Source of the DNA: a virus
Lineage: Duplodnaviria > Heunggongvirae > Uroviricota > Caudoviricetes
DNA: 4,226 nt
Reading direction: 5' to 3' (one strand)
Virus record (IMG/VR): IMGVR_UViG_2695420739_000014
Coordinates: 1-4,226 of that record
Made by a program: the position numbers and the translations under genes. The notes below the pieces were generated by a model, which saw only the letters and a program-made list of their open reading frames with translations, was not told the origin of the DNA and did no database searches. Below are positions 1 to 4,226 of the stretch, in pieces (within the stretch, counting starts at the first letter, position 1; the number at the start of each line of letters is the position of its first letter).

Positions 1-228
1 CGTGGCTGTCTGGAATATGACGTCAGCGCCACCGACATCACCAGCTCGTTTATGGCTATCCGCAAGAGCATGACCAGCAGCGGACGCAGCGCCACCTATG
101 AGGCCAGCCGCAGCGAGGAAGCCAGCCACGCCGACCTCGCCTGGGCGACCATGCATGCCCTGTTAAATGAGCCACTCACCGCCGGTATCAGCACCCCGCT
201 GACATCCACCATTCTGGAGTTTTACTGA
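1..228 (+). CDS. P: Terminase large (ATPase) subunit, C-terminal 75 codons only; the 5' end lies upstream of the window (P2 gpP-like)
   Basis: Frame 1 is open from base 1 to TGA at 226-228 (translation ends ...ASHADLAWATMHALLNEPLTAGISTPLTSTILEFY*). The stop overlaps the portal ATG as TGATG. Position directly upstream of the portal gene and co-oriented matches the P2 P-Q late operon. Not in the ORF track because it has no long start-to-stop ORF inside the window. Confidence 0.75.
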   Translation, partial: RGCLEYDVSATDITSSFMAIRKSMTSSGRSATYEASRSEEASHADLAWATMHALLNEPLTAGISTPLTSTILEFY

Positions 229-1262
229 TGAGCAAGAAAAAAGGGAAAACACCGCAACCTGCGGTAAAAAAAATGGCCGCCAGCGCCCCGAAAATGGAGG
301 CATTCACCTTTGGTGAGCCGGTGCCGGTGCTCGACCGCCGTGACATTCTGGATTACGTCGAATGTATCAGTAACGGCAGATGGTATGAGCCGCCGGTCAG
401 CTTTACCGGTCTGGCAAAAAGCCTGCGTGCTGCCGTGCATCACAGCTCACCGATTTACGTCAAACGCAATATTCTGGCCTCGACATTTATCCCACATCCG
501 TGGCTTTCCCAGCAGGATTTCAGCCGCTTTGTGCTGGATTTTCTGGTGTTCGGTAATGCGTTTCTGGAAAAGCGTTACAGCACCACCGGCAAGGTCATCA
601 GACTGGAAACCTCACCGGCAAAATATACCCGCCGTGGTGTGGAAGAGGATGTTTACTGGTGGGTGCCGTCCTTCAACGAGCCGACAGCCTTCGCACCCGG
701 CTCCGTGTTTCACCTGCTGGAGCCGGATATTAATCAGGAGCTGTACGGCCTGCCGGAATATCTCAGCGCCCTTAACTCTGCCTGGCTGAATGAGTCAGCC
801 ACGCTGTTCCGCCGCAAGTATTACGAAAACGGCGCTCATGCCGGATACATCATGTACGTCACCGATGCCGTGCAGGATCGCAACGATATCGAAATGCTTC
901 GCGAAAACATGGTTAAGTCGAAAGGCCGCAACAACTTTAAAAACCTGTTTCTCTATGCCCCGCAGGGGAAAGCTGACGGCATTAAAATTATCCCGCTCAG
1001 TGAAGTGGCGACGAAGGACGATTTTTTTAATATCAAAAAAGCCAGTGCCGCAGACCTGCTGGACGCGCACCGCATCCCCTTTCAGTTGATGGGCGGCAAG
1101 CCGGAGAACGTCGGGTCGCTGGGTGATATTGAGAAAGTGGCAAAGGTCTTTGTCCGCAATGAGCTTATCCCGTTACAGGACAGGATTCGGGAAATAAACG
1201 GCTGGCTCGGTCAGGAGGTCATCCGCTTTAAAAACTACTCACTGGACACTGACAACGGCTGA
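228..1262 (+). CDS. Q: Phage portal protein (P2 gpQ-like), 344 aa
   Basis: Complete ORF ATG 228 to TGA 1260-1262. GGAG at 216-219 sits 8 nt upstream of the ATG. The translation (MSKKKGKTPQP...EAFTFGEPVPVLDRRDILDYVECISNGRWYEPP...) is recognisable to me as the P2-family portal; length and position next to the terminase gene and about 170 bp from cos agree with P2. Confidence 0.93.
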   Translation: MSKKKGKTPQPAVKKMAASAPKMEAFTFGEPVPVLDRRDILDYVECISNGRWYEPPVSFTGLAKSLRAAVHHSSPIYVKRNILASTFIPHPWLSQQDFSRFVLDFLVFGNAFLEKRYSTTGKVIRLETSPAKYTRRGVEEDVYWWVPSFNEPTAFAPGSVFHLLEPDINQELYGLPEYLSALNSAWLNESATLFRRKYYENGAHAGYIMYVTDAVQDRNDIEMLRENMVKSKGRNNFKNLFLYAPQGKADGIKIIPLSEVATKDDFFNIKKASAADLLDAHRIPFQLMGGKPENVGSLGDIEKVAKVFVRNELIPLQDRIREINGWLGQEVIRFKNYSLDTDNG

Positions 1263-1267
1263 ACATC

Positions 1268-1289
1268 GCCGCCTGCGGGCGGCTTTTTT
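1268..1289 (+). terminator. Rho-independent terminator downstream of the portal gene
   Basis: Perfect 6-bp GC stem GCCGCC (1268-1273) / GGCGGC (1278-1283), 4-nt loop TGCG, followed directly by TTTTTT (1284-1289), starting 6 nt after the Q stop codon. Confidence 0.8.
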
Positions 1290-1431
1290 ACACCCTGTCA
1301 TCACGCCCTCACACGCTCACCACCGCACAAAACACCCCGCAGACACACCAACGCCTCAACGGGCAGACTAAACGCCGTCACGACGCGCTCAGACGCTGAA
1401 AAAATAAAATCAGCACCACCGCCAGCGCGCA

Positions 1432-1450
1432 GTGCTTTCCCCGCCTCGCC
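1432..1450. other. cos cohesive-end site of a P2-like phage (19 nt)
   Basis: GTGCTTTCCCCGCCTCGCC at 1432-1450 is the reverse complement of GGCGAGGCGGGGAAAGCAC, which I recall as the 19-nt cohesive end of phage P2. It lies in a gene-free gap between the portal gene and the converging replication/cargo genes, as in P2. Confidence 0.85.
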
Positions 1451-1540
1451 CGCCCGCTTCATGGGACGCTTTTAATGCAGGAGCATCAGGAGCCTCGCGC
1501 CGCGCCAGCGCTGGTGCTGACTGGCAAATTCTGAAATAAA

Positions 1541-1558
1541 AAACGAATGCAAATTCAT
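1541..1558 (-). terminator. Weak candidate intrinsic terminator downstream of the DUF2971-like gene
   Basis: On the - strand, 21 nt after the TAG stop: 6-bp AT-rich stem AUGAAU (1558-1553) / AUUCGU (1548-1543) with one G-U pair, loop UUGC, then UUUUUUAUUU. The stem is weak, so this is tentative. Confidence 0.3.
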
Positions 1559-1578
1559 GCACCGTATGTATGCAGAGG

Positions 1579-2397
1579 CTATTTAGACTCAAGTTGGATT
1601 TTATAATTTGTAAAATCAGCTTTTGCTGTCATTATTTCAATGCCATTTTTTTTGGCGAAATTTTCAATAAAAACTCGCATATCTCCGGATAGACGCTCGC
1701 CAATAATTATCGCATCAATGCAACATCCTTGCAGGGGAACTTCGATACCACTCTGATGTTCATAAACAGCCTCAGTATCGAGGAAATGCAAGCTTCTTAC
1801 CTCATCCTCTCGCTCCCAATCAGAATGTTTAACAAGTGCAAAATCAAAATTCACAGACACCGGTTCACCACGAGCCATCTCAAGGAGATATTTATAAAAA
1901 TCAACTCTAGGGGCTTTATCGTCATATGTAACATCAAAAAGTTCAATACCCGACCCCTTCAACCTTTCTCTATTATATGCAAAACATATTCCTTTCATTC
2001 CGTTTCCATAATAACCCCACATCAATCTACTATTATAGTTTTTAGTAAAACTTGCTACTGCAACATTCTTTTGAAACTCGATTAGAAAACCACTAGCAAA
2101 ACCGTCCCCCCACACTTCATCAAAGCGTTGATAAATCTTACCAAGCTCATTTTTATCTAATAGTTCTCGAAGCTCCCTCCCTTCACCTGTAATTTTATCC
2201 AATCTATCTATCAGGGTTGATATATCCGACTTATCGAAATACTTAAGGGATTCTTTATCAAAATGATAAAACATGTCAAATGGGTCATTAAGAATGCTAT
2301 TTTTGGAATGCCAAATAGCATTGTTAACAAGCTCATTTATAGTATTGATGTTATCCCCTCTAAACCTGAAGATATGAGTTGCACTTGAAAGAATCAT
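1579..2397 (-). CDS. DUF2971-like protein (272 aa), AT-rich accessory gene; candidate defence/abortive-infection effector, function unknown
   Basis: ORF from ATG (2397-2395) to TAG (1581-1579). AAGGGG Shine-Dalgarno-like sequence 5 nt upstream of the ATG. Spot counts give about 27-42% GC per 60-nt block against about 60% in the portal gene. Motifs I associate with DUF2971: N-terminal ...AIWHSKNSILNDPFDMF... and central ...LMWGYYGNGMKGICFAY... No Walker A P-loop. Confidence 0.8.
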   Translation of the reverse strand: MILSSATHIFRFRGDNINTINELVNNAIWHSKNSILNDPFDMFYHFDKESLKYFDKSDISTLIDRLDKITGEGRELRELLDKNELGKIYQRFDEVWGDGFASGFLIEFQKNVAVASFTKNYNSRLMWGYYGNGMKGICFAYNRERLKGSGIELFDVTYDDKAPRVDFYKYLLEMARGEPVSVNFDFALVKHSDWEREDEVRSLHFLDTEAVYEHQSGIEVPLQGCCIDAIIIGERLSGDMRVFIENFAKKNGIEIMTAKADFTNYKIQLESK

Positions 2398-2463
2398 TCT
2401 GGCCCCTTTTCAGCCGGTCAAGAAAAGTAAGACTCTAACGCCTCACTCGCTCGTTGTTCAACC

Positions 2464-2498
2464 CCGCCAGCACTGAAAGCAAGTTTCAGCACCAGCGG
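2464..2498. repeat. Imperfect inverted repeat in the intergenic gap upstream of the DUF2971-like gene
   Basis: 15-nt arms CCGCCAGCACTGAAA / TTTCAGCACCAGCGG pair at 11 of 15 positions around a 5-nt spacer GCAAG; the inner 6 bp (CTGAAA/TTTCAG, 2473-2489) are perfect. It sits between the small-ORF stop (2511) and the DUF2971-like start (2397). Confidence 0.4.
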
Positions 2499-2510
2499 TG
2501 TTTGCTATGG

Positions 2511-2741
2511 TCAACGTGGCCGCGGAATTATCGGACCTCTCGCTGGTATGAATGATCCATTTTGCTGATTGCTGATATCACGGAGCTTACCGTAATTATC
2601 CCTGACTATTTCGGCACACCCGACCAGCTCGTCAGGCGTCAGATTTTCGTTAACCATAATCTGCTGTAGACGGTGAACAATAGCCATCAGCTTGATATTT
2701 TTAGTTTTATGTTGCGGTATCTCGCCTGGTATTCTGTGCAT
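2511..2741 (-). CDS. Hypothetical small protein (76 aa from the ATG at 2741; the ORF-track start at 2753 is a GTG)
   Basis: ORF ends at TGA 2513-2511. The ATG at 2741-2739 overlaps the TAA stop (2743-2741) of the upstream gene as TAATG, suggesting translational coupling. No strong Shine-Dalgarno sequence and no family recognised (MHRIPGEIPQHKTKNIKLMAIVHRLQQIMVNENLTPDELVGCAEIVRDNYGKLRDISNQQNGSFIPARGPIIPRPR). Confidence 0.4.
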   Translation of the reverse strand: MHRIPGEIPQHKTKNIKLMAIVHRLQQIMVNENLTPDELVGCAEIVRDNYGKLRDISNQQNGSFIPARGPIIPRPR

Positions 2742-3196
2742 TATCCAAGCCACCCGTTTTGCTGTGCACGCTCCATCTGTTCATCTGAATAGTTCCATGC
2801 TCCATCCGTGGCAACCATTGCCCCGCCAGACATCCCCGTCTCTGGTTCATACATAACAGCAAGGCCGAGCTGATGCATAATTTCATGATTAATTCTGAAT
2901 ACCAGACCACGCTCACTAAGTTCTTTCCAGTTCACAATCTCATATGCGCCTGTATTAAGCAGCTCAATACTTAGCAAGACATAATCTTCCAGCCAGTCTG
3001 ACAGGTCAGTAACATCTGTTATCCGGGCTTCAACCTTTCGCCCCGTATACACACCCTGTACCCATTCATGCAAAATCAACGTGTCCCCGCGCTCATAATT
3101 ACGGTCATTTTTCCGAAACTCTGCGCGTTTCTTTCCTTCCAGCACAAGGTCAAAATATTTGGCGTGCAGCTTTACCTCGTGAATTTTTGCCATCAT
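2741..3196 (-). CDS. DUF3850/ASCH-like (PUA-fold) domain protein with C-terminal HExxH motif, 151 aa
   Basis: Start assigned to ATG 3196-3194, which overlaps the TGA stop of the A-like gene (3195-3193) as ATGA; GGAG lies 5 nt upstream. The ORF-track start at 3229 is a GTG inside the A coding region and is less likely. N-terminal MAKIHEVKLHAKYFDLVLEGKKRAEFRKNDRNYERGDTLILHEW... resembles DUF3850/ASCH domains. HEIMH is encoded at 2887..2873. Stop TAA 2743-2741. Confidence 0.75.
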   Translation of the reverse strand: MMAKIHEVKLHAKYFDLVLEGKKRAEFRKNDRNYERGDTLILHEWVQGVYTGRKVEARITDVTDLSDWLEDYVLLSIELLNTGAYEIVNWKELSERGLVFRINHEIMHQLGLAVMYEPETGMSGGAMVATDGAWNYSDEQMERAQQNGWLG

Positions 3197-4226
3197 TTCC
3201 ACTCCATTACTGTTGAGAATCCCGGCCACTCATCAGCGACCGGATACGTGAATTTTTTCCCGTCATAATTTACGGTCGCGCCACGCGCCAGCGCCTCAAG
3301 CTCCCATCGCTGCGGCCTGATACCGTTCTGAGCAAGGTCAACGCGGATACGGGTAATTTGCATTCTTTCCGACCGGGTCAGTCTGGCCGATGGTGCAATT
3401 TCATGTGGTTTTAACGGGCTTCCGTTTCTCTGCTGACGGTTTGGCGTTCGCAGGTCGTGTTTTAATGCGCCCCTGAGCGCCCTCACGACCTCCGGTTCAT
3501 TCCATTCAATAACACCGTCATCAACCAGATTAAGCACGGCTGCGGCGTGCTCAGAAGGTGTGGGAGCCGGTAACGAAGTATCACCACCGGTGAGCTTTCC
3601 ACAGTTATTGACAGGACTCCGAGGCGCGGCGATGCCGCTTTTTAAAGTCAGAGGCTCAACGACCGGAACTTTCGGCACAATGCGCCAGTCCGTCGTTCTG
3701 GTGATATGAATATGACGCGCGCCGAGATGCGGCGCGTAAATGCCGACCACTCTCTCGACTTCTTCCTCGTACTCGTTAACTTCATCCGACGGACTACGGG
3801 CGACCCTGACAGTCTGACAATCGCGCGGGACATTTGCCCCACCCTGCGCGCTGATATACAACGCAAAATCACCACTGTCTGCGGCGGCGCGTGCAGCCTC
3901 GACGCGCTCGTCAAACTCATCAGCAATGCTGACGCCGCGAGGCAATTTGCGTAGTTCACGGTAAGCCCCCATTGTCGGCAGACCAACCGTTTTAAATTGT
4001 GGGATGCGCCACGTTGACGCCCATGCGGTAACAGCCGCAGCAGTGTCTTTCAGCGGTCTGCCGGTATCGTTATCGAGCTGACCATCCAGTGCATAGCCAT
4101 CGATGTTTTTTGAGATGTATTTCGCGATATACCCCGCAGCACCGCCCTGGTTAAGGTGTTTTGCCTGAAAACGGTTTCGCGCGGCTCCTCTTTCGTCGCC
4201 ATCCTCTTTGAGCGCATAGCGACGCA
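3193..4226 (-). CDS. A: Rolling-circle replication initiator endonuclease (P2 gpA-like), C-terminal ~344 codons; the 5' end lies outside the window
   Basis: The - strand frame is open from the window edge (4224) to TGA 3195-3193; the ORF track shows only the part from the internal ATG at 3972. The translation contains GAAGYIAKYISKNIDG with two tyrosines four residues apart, matching the Y-x-x-K-Y active-site arrangement of P2 A as I recall it. If the first tyrosine is Y450, the implied total length is about 761 aa, the size I recall for P2 A. Confidence 0.85.
   Translation of the reverse strand, partial: RRYALKEDGDERGAARNRFQAKHLNQGGAAGYIAKYISKNIDGYALDGQLDNDTGRPLKDTAAAVTAWASTWRIPQFKTVGLPTMGAYRELRKLPRGVSIADEFDERVEAARAAADSGDFALYISAQGGANVPRDCQTVRVARSPSDEVNEYEEEVERVVGIYAPHLGARHIHITRTTDWRIVPKVPVVEPLTLKSGIAAPRSPVNNCGKLTGGDTSLPAPTPSEHAAAVLNLVDDGVIEWNEPEVVRALRGALKHDLRTPNRQQRNGSPLKPHEIAPSARLTRSERMQITRIRVDLAQNGIRPQRWELEALARGATVNYDGKKFTYPVADEWPGFSTVMEWK
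3608..3627 (-). other. Candidate replication origin / A-protein nick site inside the A coding region
   Basis: The - strand reads GCGCCTCGGAGTCCTGTCAA. The P2 ori is known to lie within gene A; I recall the nick-site sequence only approximately, so this is tentative. It is flanked on the + strand by a GC hairpin GCGGC-GAT-GCCGC (3626-3638) followed by TTTTT. Confidence 0.35.

Follow-up and report, generated by a model that had tools for sequence, protein, structure and literature searches.

The DNA considered here, which we call the window, is a stretch of 4,226 nucleotides (nt), positions 1 to 4,226 of the IMG/VR virus record IMGVR_UViG_2695420739_000014. It corresponds, when read in reverse, to the right end of a P2-like (Peduoviridae) prophage. 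On the minus strand the order of transcription is the 3' part of the replication initiator gene A, an orf91-like gene, a small open reading frame (ORF), and a gene with a DUF2971 domain. The small ORF is the subject of this study. Comparison with its relatives identifies it as a genuine gene that is under strong purifying selection as a protein. By its position among related phages it is an accessory gene of the P2-like group, the final conserved one of the rightward early/SOS unit, right before the variable gpA-gpQ hotspot. The features of the gene and of its immediate surroundings are as follows.

2511-2741, minus strand: the small gene, 76 codons plus a TGA stop (2513-2511); a member of phrog_11386, given the same ends by the Prokaryotic Genome Annotation Pipeline (PGAP) in E. 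coli ES5.
2739-2743, minus strand: TAATG stop/start overlap with the orf91-like gene (T2743-A2742-A2741-T2740-G2739; TAA 2743-2741, ATG 2741-2739).
2751-2753, minus strand: GTG of the longest mechanical ORF, rejected as start; it lies inside the upstream gene, four codons before the ATG (MAWIM...).
2559-2714, minus strand: conserved core, residues 10-61, predicted by AlphaFold2 and the alignment as two antiparallel helices joined by an NLTP turn.
2514-2558, minus strand: Pro/Arg-rich C-terminal tail, residues 62-76 (GSFIPARGPIIPRPR), predicted to be disordered from its low predicted local distance difference test (pLDDT) scores.
2505-2522, minus strand: lesions of the window allele, from comparison of 3' ends among relatives.
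2435-2504, minus strand: conserved non-coding element of about 70 nt, ending in GAGGCGTTAG, from an alignment of 44 distinct copies.

The product of the small ORF ends in SFIPARGPIIPRPR. Direct reading of the sequence agrees with a preliminary description of this DNA, in which the ATG at 2741 overlapped the TAA of the upstream gene and gave a product of 76 amino acids (aa), and Pfam matches bear out the DUF3850-like and DUF2971-like genes that it had placed on the two sides. The start of the mechanical ORF track, noted there as a GTG 12 nt upstream, is the GTG at 2753. We rejected this codon as the start of the gene. Since GTG 2753 exists only where the orf91-like gene stands upstream and is missing from the other upstream contexts, in all of which the ATG persists, the true start is, on this comparison, the ATG at 2741. 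Position 1 of the phrog_11386 profile aligns with the Met encoded there, and in the E. coli ES5 locus, which is 99.2% identical, PGAP chose the same starts for both the orf91-like gene and the small ORF.

The preliminary description had called the coding status uncertain and had proposed that frame conservation and the pattern of synonymous and nonsynonymous substitution be compared among related prophages. This comparison was made with 92 homologous loci from phage records, species-representative genomes and IMG/VR viral contigs, or 93 places with the window, and its outcome is clearly positive. An ATG stands at the aligned position in 87 of the 93 places, and the reading frame is open in all 93 but Wphi. 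The substitution test used the first 53 codons of 60 distinct sequences. The ratio of nonsynonymous to synonymous substitution rates (dN/dS) is 0.067, the proportions of synonymous (pS) and nonsynonymous (pN) differences being 0.54 and 0.06, respectively. Variable columns number 25, 13 and 49 at codon positions 1, 2 and 3. The frame is open in 60 of the 60 distinct sequences, and all five other frames, those of the opposite strand included, hold stops in 59-60 of them. It could be argued that there is no gene here and that the conservation comes from a DNA or RNA element, given that the window has no strong Shine-Dalgarno sequence and that an opposite-strand ORF is annotated here in LR595887. 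The low dN/dS, the dominance of third-position variation, the closure of the other frames and the presence of Shine-Dalgarno sequences of the gene's own in other contexts all stand against this view, which the substitution test refutes and which deserves next to no credence.

Individual copies show departures of their own. In LR595887.1 (Peduovirus P24A7b, locus L001) the opposite-strand ORF, at 1844-2143 on the plus strand, is annotated over the small gene and the element 3' of it instead. The Wphi copy (locus L002, about 3564-3620) carries a frameshift near codon 9, and the annotation of gp92 begins at a start further downstream. In Trabulsiella odontotermitis (locus L008, 3477-3833) the stop is lost through a change of TAG to CAG, and the frame continues for about 40 codons through the hairpin element described below.

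The statement in the preliminary description that the protein belongs to no recognisable family is right as regards Pfam, NCBIfam and PADLOC, in which no match was found (0 families among the PADLOC defence models), but not for PHROG. Residues 5-72 of the 80-aa translation match positions 1-68 of the 69 in the profile of phrog_11386 with an E value of 5.7e-43 (145.9 bits). The protein is homologous to gp92 (orf92) of Wphi and gp37 (orf37) of PSP3, with 64-91% identity in tblastn, and there are tblastn matches to it in 34 phage records. The PHROG 11386 proteins, including those of Wphi and PSP3, are of the same size and homologous over the full length, and their genes have the same position, last in the rightward operon and ahead of the variable region. 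The window allele differs from Wphi gp92 and PSP3 gp37 in that its C-terminus is altered and shorter (IIPRPR for IIPPPRRP), and the Wphi copy differs by its frameshift. About 196 protein clusters (90% identity) are present in Enterobacterales, including Escherichia, Salmonella, Klebsiella, Enterobacter, Citrobacter, Edwardsiella, Buttiauxella and others. Of 5426 complete E. coli genomes, 402 contain the DNA of the core, and the gene is annotated in them as 'hypothetical protein'.

The surroundings of the gene vary, and its ATG is retained behind at least five unrelated upstream contexts.

Context 1: the orf91-like gene, joined through the TAATG overlap (at least 35 loci, the window included).
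Context 2: a 101-aa gene ending in HVEGGDW, joined through TAAATG.
Context 3: a 71-aa gene ending in AWGDD, joined through TGATG.
Context 4 (PSP3 type): SOS-controlled tumAB/DinI-like genes (TumB-like), a spacer of about 195 nt and a canonical GAGGG Shine-Dalgarno sequence.
Context 5: gpA directly (Pectobacterium).

On the downstream side, dozens of unrelated cargo sequences follow the gene among the loci. Since both neighbours vary from locus to locus, the small gene is best read as an autonomous module and not as a partner of the DUF3850 or the DUF2971 gene. A small gene beside a candidate defence gene can suggest an antitoxin, an immunity protein or a regulator paired with the DUF2971 (PDC-S31) or the DUF3850 gene, and the preliminary description had named an antitoxin among the possible roles. 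The analysis of context largely refutes such a pairing, which now appears scarcely probable. The same gene stands ahead of dozens of unrelated cargos and behind at least five different upstream genes, and the DUF2971 cargo occurs in only 5 E. coli genomes compared with 402 for the small gene. No antitoxin or DNA-binding domain (ribbon-helix-helix, helix-turn-helix, Phd/YefM or similar) was found in the protein with Pfam, NCBIfam or PADLOC, and there was no PADLOC or antitoxin-family match.

In the window, as the preliminary description had noted, the ATG at 2741 has no strong ribosome-binding site. The sequence GGGTGG at -17 to -12 is too distant, and only GGA is present at -7 to -5. The 1-nt overlap with the orf91-like gene is kept in at least 35 loci, TAATG or TGATG overlaps are found in about 40 loci, and the junction of gpA with the orf91-like gene is likewise a 1-nt overlap (TGATG at 3195-3191). 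Where there is no overlap the Shine-Dalgarno sequences are stronger: GAGGG, GGTGGAG or GGGGGG. Because the Shine-Dalgarno sequence is weak and the 1-nt overlap conserved, the small ORF is likely to be translated by termination-reinitiation at TAATG in the window lineage. The window resembles in this respect translationally coupled overlapping phage genes (ATGA/TAATG), with its 1-nt overlaps at both the gpA/orf91 and the orf91/small gene junctions and a weak distal Shine-Dalgarno sequence. The earlier proposal of a single translation unit in the replication operon is therefore reasonable for gpA, the orf91-like gene and the small ORF in the window lineage, but it does not describe the family. 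Unlike the usual coupled genes, the probable coupling here is lineage-specific, and PSP3-type copies stand alone with a Shine-Dalgarno sequence of their own.

The AlphaFold2 model of the small protein, built with a 40-sequence alignment, predicts one helix at residues 10-31 and another at residues 36-61; pLDDT exceeds 90 over about residues 20-50. The residues that do not vary (L18, M19, V22, R24, L25, M29, L34, T35, E38-C42, V46 and D48) all lie in this helical hairpin. A helix-turn-helix reading of LTPDELVGCAEIV was considered and rejected, as in the model residues 36-61 form one continuous helix. The region after residue 53 is a linker that differs in length and sequence by lineage. The extreme C-terminus, in contrast, reads PPPRR and then R or P in nearly all cases. 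This ending is written with many synonymous codons (CCG, CCA, CCT and CCC for Pro; CGT, CGC, CGA and AGA for Arg), and because so many codon combinations encode it, PPPRR[RP] is selected as protein and not as DNA. In the long-tail subfamily (78 aa) the dN/dS of the tail is 0.147.

The tail consensus of the family ends in F.PARGPIIPPPRRP. The window protein is of this long-tail type of 78 aa, which ranges from Salmonella to Edwardsiella, but it carries two lesions compared with relatives. Codon 74 is CGG (Arg) in place of CCA or CCG (Pro), a P74R change, and codon 77 is TGA in place of CGA (Arg), by which the last two residues are lost. The ancestral last codon and stop, CCA TAG, persist past the new stop at 2505-2510. 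The window-type ending (...IIPRPR) is limited to two small clusters, P0001 and P0002. Because the tail is damaged in this way, the C-terminal function of the window allele may be weakened.

A lead to the function of the family comes from distant relatives, in Serratia, Pectobacterium and further lineages, in which the core is joined to another domain. A profile search of 1.8 billion representative proteins yielded only 31 family representatives (50% identity), and six of the 31, of 101-122 aa, consist of the core, a linker and the Pfam domain zf-C4_ClpX, which scores above the gathering score. The cores of the tail-bearing and the fused forms are homologous with an hhalign probability of 98.8%. 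The zinc finger of the Serratia form (P0152) is identical at 31 of 34 residues to the zinc-binding domain of E. coli ClpX (PDB 2DS5), which indicates that the domain appended in Serratia is captured host ClpX sequence. An AlphaFold2 model of a fused form shows the hairpin, a floppy linker and the zinc finger as separate modules. In Serratia (loci L093-L095) gpA is followed in turn by one gene, the fused gene, HicAB cargo and the portal gene, and in Pectobacterium (L012) the fused gene lies directly behind gpA. Thus the Serratia and Pectobacterium homologues ('ClpX C4-type zinc finger protein') share with the window protein the helical-hairpin core and the slot after gpA and before the cargo. 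They differ from it in having a zinc-binding domain in place of its 15-residue Pro/Arg tail, and the Serratia L093 locus in having no downstream hairpin.

The zinc-binding domain of ClpX dimerises, and the tails of adaptors (SspB) bind to it, as do certain substrates, among them lambda O and MuA. We propose that in the phage family the hairpin core would be a protein-binding module and that the C-terminal appendage would connect this core to the host ClpX unfoldase. In the fused forms the near-exact copy of the ClpX zinc-binding domain would, most plausibly, compete with ClpX or dock onto it, and in the tail-bearing members the Pro/Arg tail would be a docking peptide. The family would in this way modulate ClpX-dependent degradation or remodelling during lytic growth, as adaptor, anti-adaptor or decoy. 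Such a ClpX-linked function, with a core for binding and an appendage for reaching ClpX, is a possibility that we hold tentatively. A selected accessory gene, with the coupling described above and a ClpX-linked function, is the best overall explanation that we can offer, and as a whole it is plausible if short of probable. Among the roles that the preliminary description had listed, that of adaptor is thus the one we tentatively favour, with indirect support from the ClpX zinc-finger fusions; that of a regulator or antitoxin paired with a neighbour did not survive.

There are working analogies for such a role in general knowledge of phages and proteases. Small early phage inhibitors act on host AAA+ proteases: lambda CIII on FtsH, and T4 PinA and T7 gp4.5 on Lon. 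These proteins and the SspB adaptors are, like the one proposed here, small, and they engage the protease by means of a folded module for binding together with an amphipathic helix or a C-terminal peptide that is short and flexible. The window protein differs from SspB, CIII, PinA and gp4.5 in that it has no similarity to them in sequence or fold, it lacks LRVVK, and its docking on ClpX is only proposed. A substrate-binding domain of the SspB type had no match in Pfam or NCBIfam, and the predicted fold is a two-helix hairpin, not the beta-rich fold of SspB.

Several points weigh against a ClpX-linked function. The link comes from fusions in distant relatives, and the window protein is without a zinc finger: the C4 zinc-binding domain (PF06689) was not found in it, nor any other Pfam match, and it has a single Cys. 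The tail is unlike the ClpX-binding motif of SspB, which is LRVVK-COOH, except in being Gly/Pro-rich, hydrophobic and then basic. Some members consist of the core only, with neither tail nor zinc finger, so the core must be able to function alone. P2 and phage 186 have no copy in tblastn searches, and the gene is therefore dispensable. Searches of sequence and structure against solved structures lent no functional support: a profile search against PDB sequences had a best E value of 1.4 and gave no functional lead, and Foldseek against PDB and BFVD had a best E value above 5, a two-helix hairpin being too simple for fold matching. A search of the literature brought up no relevant work on ClpX zinc-finger proteins encoded by phages or on inhibitors of ClpX. 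Finally, the ClpX-type finger may serve just as a dimerisation module and be silent on ClpX, because regulators of the MerR type also carry such fingers.

The regulators in question are two metagenomic proteins (P0162 and P0163) in which a ClpX-type C4 zinc finger is joined to a MerR-family helix-turn-helix regulator, the domain being reused outside ClpX and also beyond the present family.

A generic role in dimerisation is also what would be expected if the protein were an early host-takeover or anti-defence factor, whose hairpin binds some other host target or a target in a competitor phage and whose finger or tail serves dimerisation or solubility and not ClpX. It would fit with this that the gene is small, early and dispensable, that it adjoins a defence hotspot and is absent from P2 and 186, that core-only relatives exist, and that MerR regulators carry ClpX-type fingers. 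However, identity of the Serratia finger to ClpX at 31 of 34 residues exceeds the need of dimerisation and looks like mimicry, and selection of the terminal PPPRR at the protein level implies that the tail is no mere spacer. A takeover or anti-defence role of this kind is conceivable, although we regard it as doubtful.

The small gene is in the databases as 'hypothetical protein', and its existence is not new. As a member of a family of hypothetical phage proteins it is ordinary, and this copy has a slightly degraded C-terminus. What is new is firm evidence for a selected protein with a defined start, which corrects the annotations of LR595887 (gene missed) and Wphi (frameshift), and the view of the gene as an autonomous module that is always in the final conserved slot ahead of the P2 defence hotspot. 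The relatives with a near-identical host ClpX zinc-binding domain are a testable lead, suggesting that these phages act on ClpX. If so, P2-like phages could reprogramme ClpXP during lytic growth, perhaps shielding a phage protein or blocking abortive-infection systems that a protease triggers. A stronger version, that the family is a previously unrecognised class of phage ClpX modulators, targeted by a captured zinc-binding domain, or by the short PARGPIIPPPRRP tail in the phages of E. coli and Salmonella, and that the adjacent hairpin is a separate undescribed module of the hotspot edge, is rather unlikely in its entirety.

The hairpin in question belongs to the conserved element that follows the gene, and it too is new: it is supported by covariation and ends exactly where homology between phages ends. 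The element starts 1-4 nt past the ancestral stop in nearly all tail-form loci (CAAACGCCGCCGGTGCTGAAACTTGCTTTCAGTGCTGGCGGGGTTGAACAACGAGCnnnGCGAGGCGTTAG). It contains a 17-pair hairpin at 2461-2501 and a small second stem at 2437-2458. Over the alignment, 94.7% of cells in the hairpin are paired, compared with 28-49% in slid controls. Double-sided changes are seen in 10 pairs, compared with 4.2+-1.2 in shuffles, and none of 500 shuffles reaches the observed number. As G.U pairs outnumber A.C mismatches by 84 to 7 cells, the hairpin forms on the sense strand, either in RNA or in single-stranded DNA with the polarity of that strand. Rfam has no match with an E value up to 1 anywhere in the window. 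The element does not read as an intrinsic terminator, since the stem is followed by GGGGUUGAACAACGAG with no U tract, and a terminator scan reports none here.

The same element is found behind other genes. In phage 186 (locus L097, 4343-4413) it lies 7 nt after the stop of orf97, ahead of the annotated terminator t95b. In PSP3 (locus L096) it is present twice, at 3060-3105 after tumB and at 3451-3530 after gp37, so that the two copies bracket the small gene. In the fused Serratia locus L093 it is not present. Because the same element follows unrelated genes in 186 and PSP3, it is an independent 'end-of-gene' module and not a part of the small gene. It could be a stabiliser or processing site of the 3' end, a boundary for recombination at the hotspot or, some 1.1 kb downstream of ori, a signal for single-strand replication.

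The small protein itself might be a replication accessory that works with gpA on the displaced strand, for example with its Arg-rich tail binding the hairpin for lagging-strand initiation, or with the protein protecting the 3' end of the transcript. The small gene is probably coupled to gpA and orf91 in the window lineage, the hairpin is on the same strand as the ori nick sequence, about 1.1 kb further downstream, and pairs well only on the sense strand, and the tail forms of the Escherichia, Salmonella and Klebsiella types precede a hairpin where the one zinc-finger form checked (Serratia L093) does not. But the PSP3 gene lies behind the SOS operon and not behind gpA, the hairpin also follows orf97 in 186, where there is no small protein, and tumB in PSP3, and the predicted fold has no nucleic-acid-binding domain. 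We consider a replication role improbable.

The closeness of the element to the stop also allows the gene to be seen as a regulatory upstream ORF, in which pausing dependent on elongation factor P (EF-P) at PPP and at Pro-stop would control folding of the hairpin and read-through into the cargo. PPPRRP and the stop lie 7 nt from the conserved hairpin base in nearly all tail-form loci, and the DUF2971 gene begins 37 nt past the element with no convincing promoter of its own. A leader peptide would have no need for the strong selection at the protein level that acts on the whole 50-residue core (dN/dS 0.067). Moreover, core-only and zinc-finger forms occur without the hairpin (the zinc-finger form read being that of Serratia L093), and Arg, not Pro, ends many alleles. 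A regulatory upstream ORF is accordingly very improbable, and a protein with a ClpX-linked function remains the explanation that we prefer.

Homology between phages ends abruptly past the element (...GCGTTAG; 2435), and in the window the cargo begins at 2434. By this comparison the variable hotspot has its boundary at 2435. How genes are exchanged at the P2 hotspot is, as Rousset et al. (2022; PMC9122126) state, unknown. A conserved structured element at the hotspot edge is an obvious place to look for it. In term searches of Rousset et al. (2022), in which 'orf91' does not occur, and of a 2026 survey of P2-like viruses, neither the ORF nor the hairpin was mentioned.

Some further features of the element, and readings of it, were considered. 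A single 14/15-nt inverted copy of the 5' arm of the hairpin (CAGCGCTGGTGCTGA, 2487-2501) is present at 1505-1519 on the plus strand, near the cos-proximal end of the cargo, and 0 of 300 shuffles reach its score. A cassette with cargo between two copies of the element was rejected, as only 16 of 69 loci repeat any 11-mer downstream and the positions are scattered; the two copies in PSP3 flank gp37 itself. The two ends of the element, AACGCC...GGCGTT, repeat each other in inverted orientation, and CGCCTCG is common to its antisense strand and the ori nick sequence. Reading it as an integron attC-like or pseudo-ori site was rejected as chance, since the strand of the shared 7-mer is the opposite one and its place is 9 nt inward of the boundary. 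Conservation, moreover, continues through GTTAG and does not end at G|TT.

The remaining genes and features of the window are as follows.

3193-4226, minus strand: replication initiator gene A, 3' part, which runs off the window (phrog_91 / phrog_14675).
2741-3193 (or to 3229), minus strand: orf91-like gene, a DUF3850/ASCH N-terminal domain followed by DUF7415 (Pfam, phrog_1812, PGAP coordinates in ES5).
1579-2397, minus strand: DUF2971 hotspot cargo (Pfam), a candidate defence gene, PDC-S31 (PADLOC, E 5.8e-33).
1268-1283: terminator after the portal gene, from the terminator scan.
228-1262, plus strand: portal gene (phrog_68; Pfam Phage_portal).

An exact match to the 20-nt sequence GCGCCTCGGAGTCCTGTCAA, reportedly the ori nick or cleavage site of P2 in the work of Liu and Haggard-Ljungquist, lies inside gene A at 3608-3627 on the minus strand. 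Between the cargo and the portal gene, 1432-1450 on the minus strand matches exactly the 19-nt GGCGAGGCGGGGAAAGCAC, the cohesive end of P2. The variable region between gpA and gpQ was reportedly described by Nilsson in 2004 (Mol Biol Evol) and by Odegrip in 2006 (J Bacteriol). The stretch from gpA to the portal gene is, according to Rousset et al. (2022; PMC9122126), a variable hotspot of P2-like phages, with old and tin in P2 and many defence systems elsewhere. The DUF2971 cargo is common at this locus to only 5 of the 5426 complete E. coli genomes. The ATG of its gene stands 37 nt past the hotspot boundary. A promoter for it within the conserved element was rejected, as neither a scan nor inspection gave an acceptable -10 hexamer. 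Because it has no convincing promoter of its own, its expression may depend on read-through from the early operon.

The orf91-like gene also shows variation. For P2 itself the match to the window is confined to the part from 2973 leftward in gene order, and its divergence thus falls in the DUF7415 half of this gene. The DUF3850/ASCH domain is PUA-like and putatively RNA-binding, and in Serratia phages DUF3850 sits elsewhere, upstream of gpA (locus L094).

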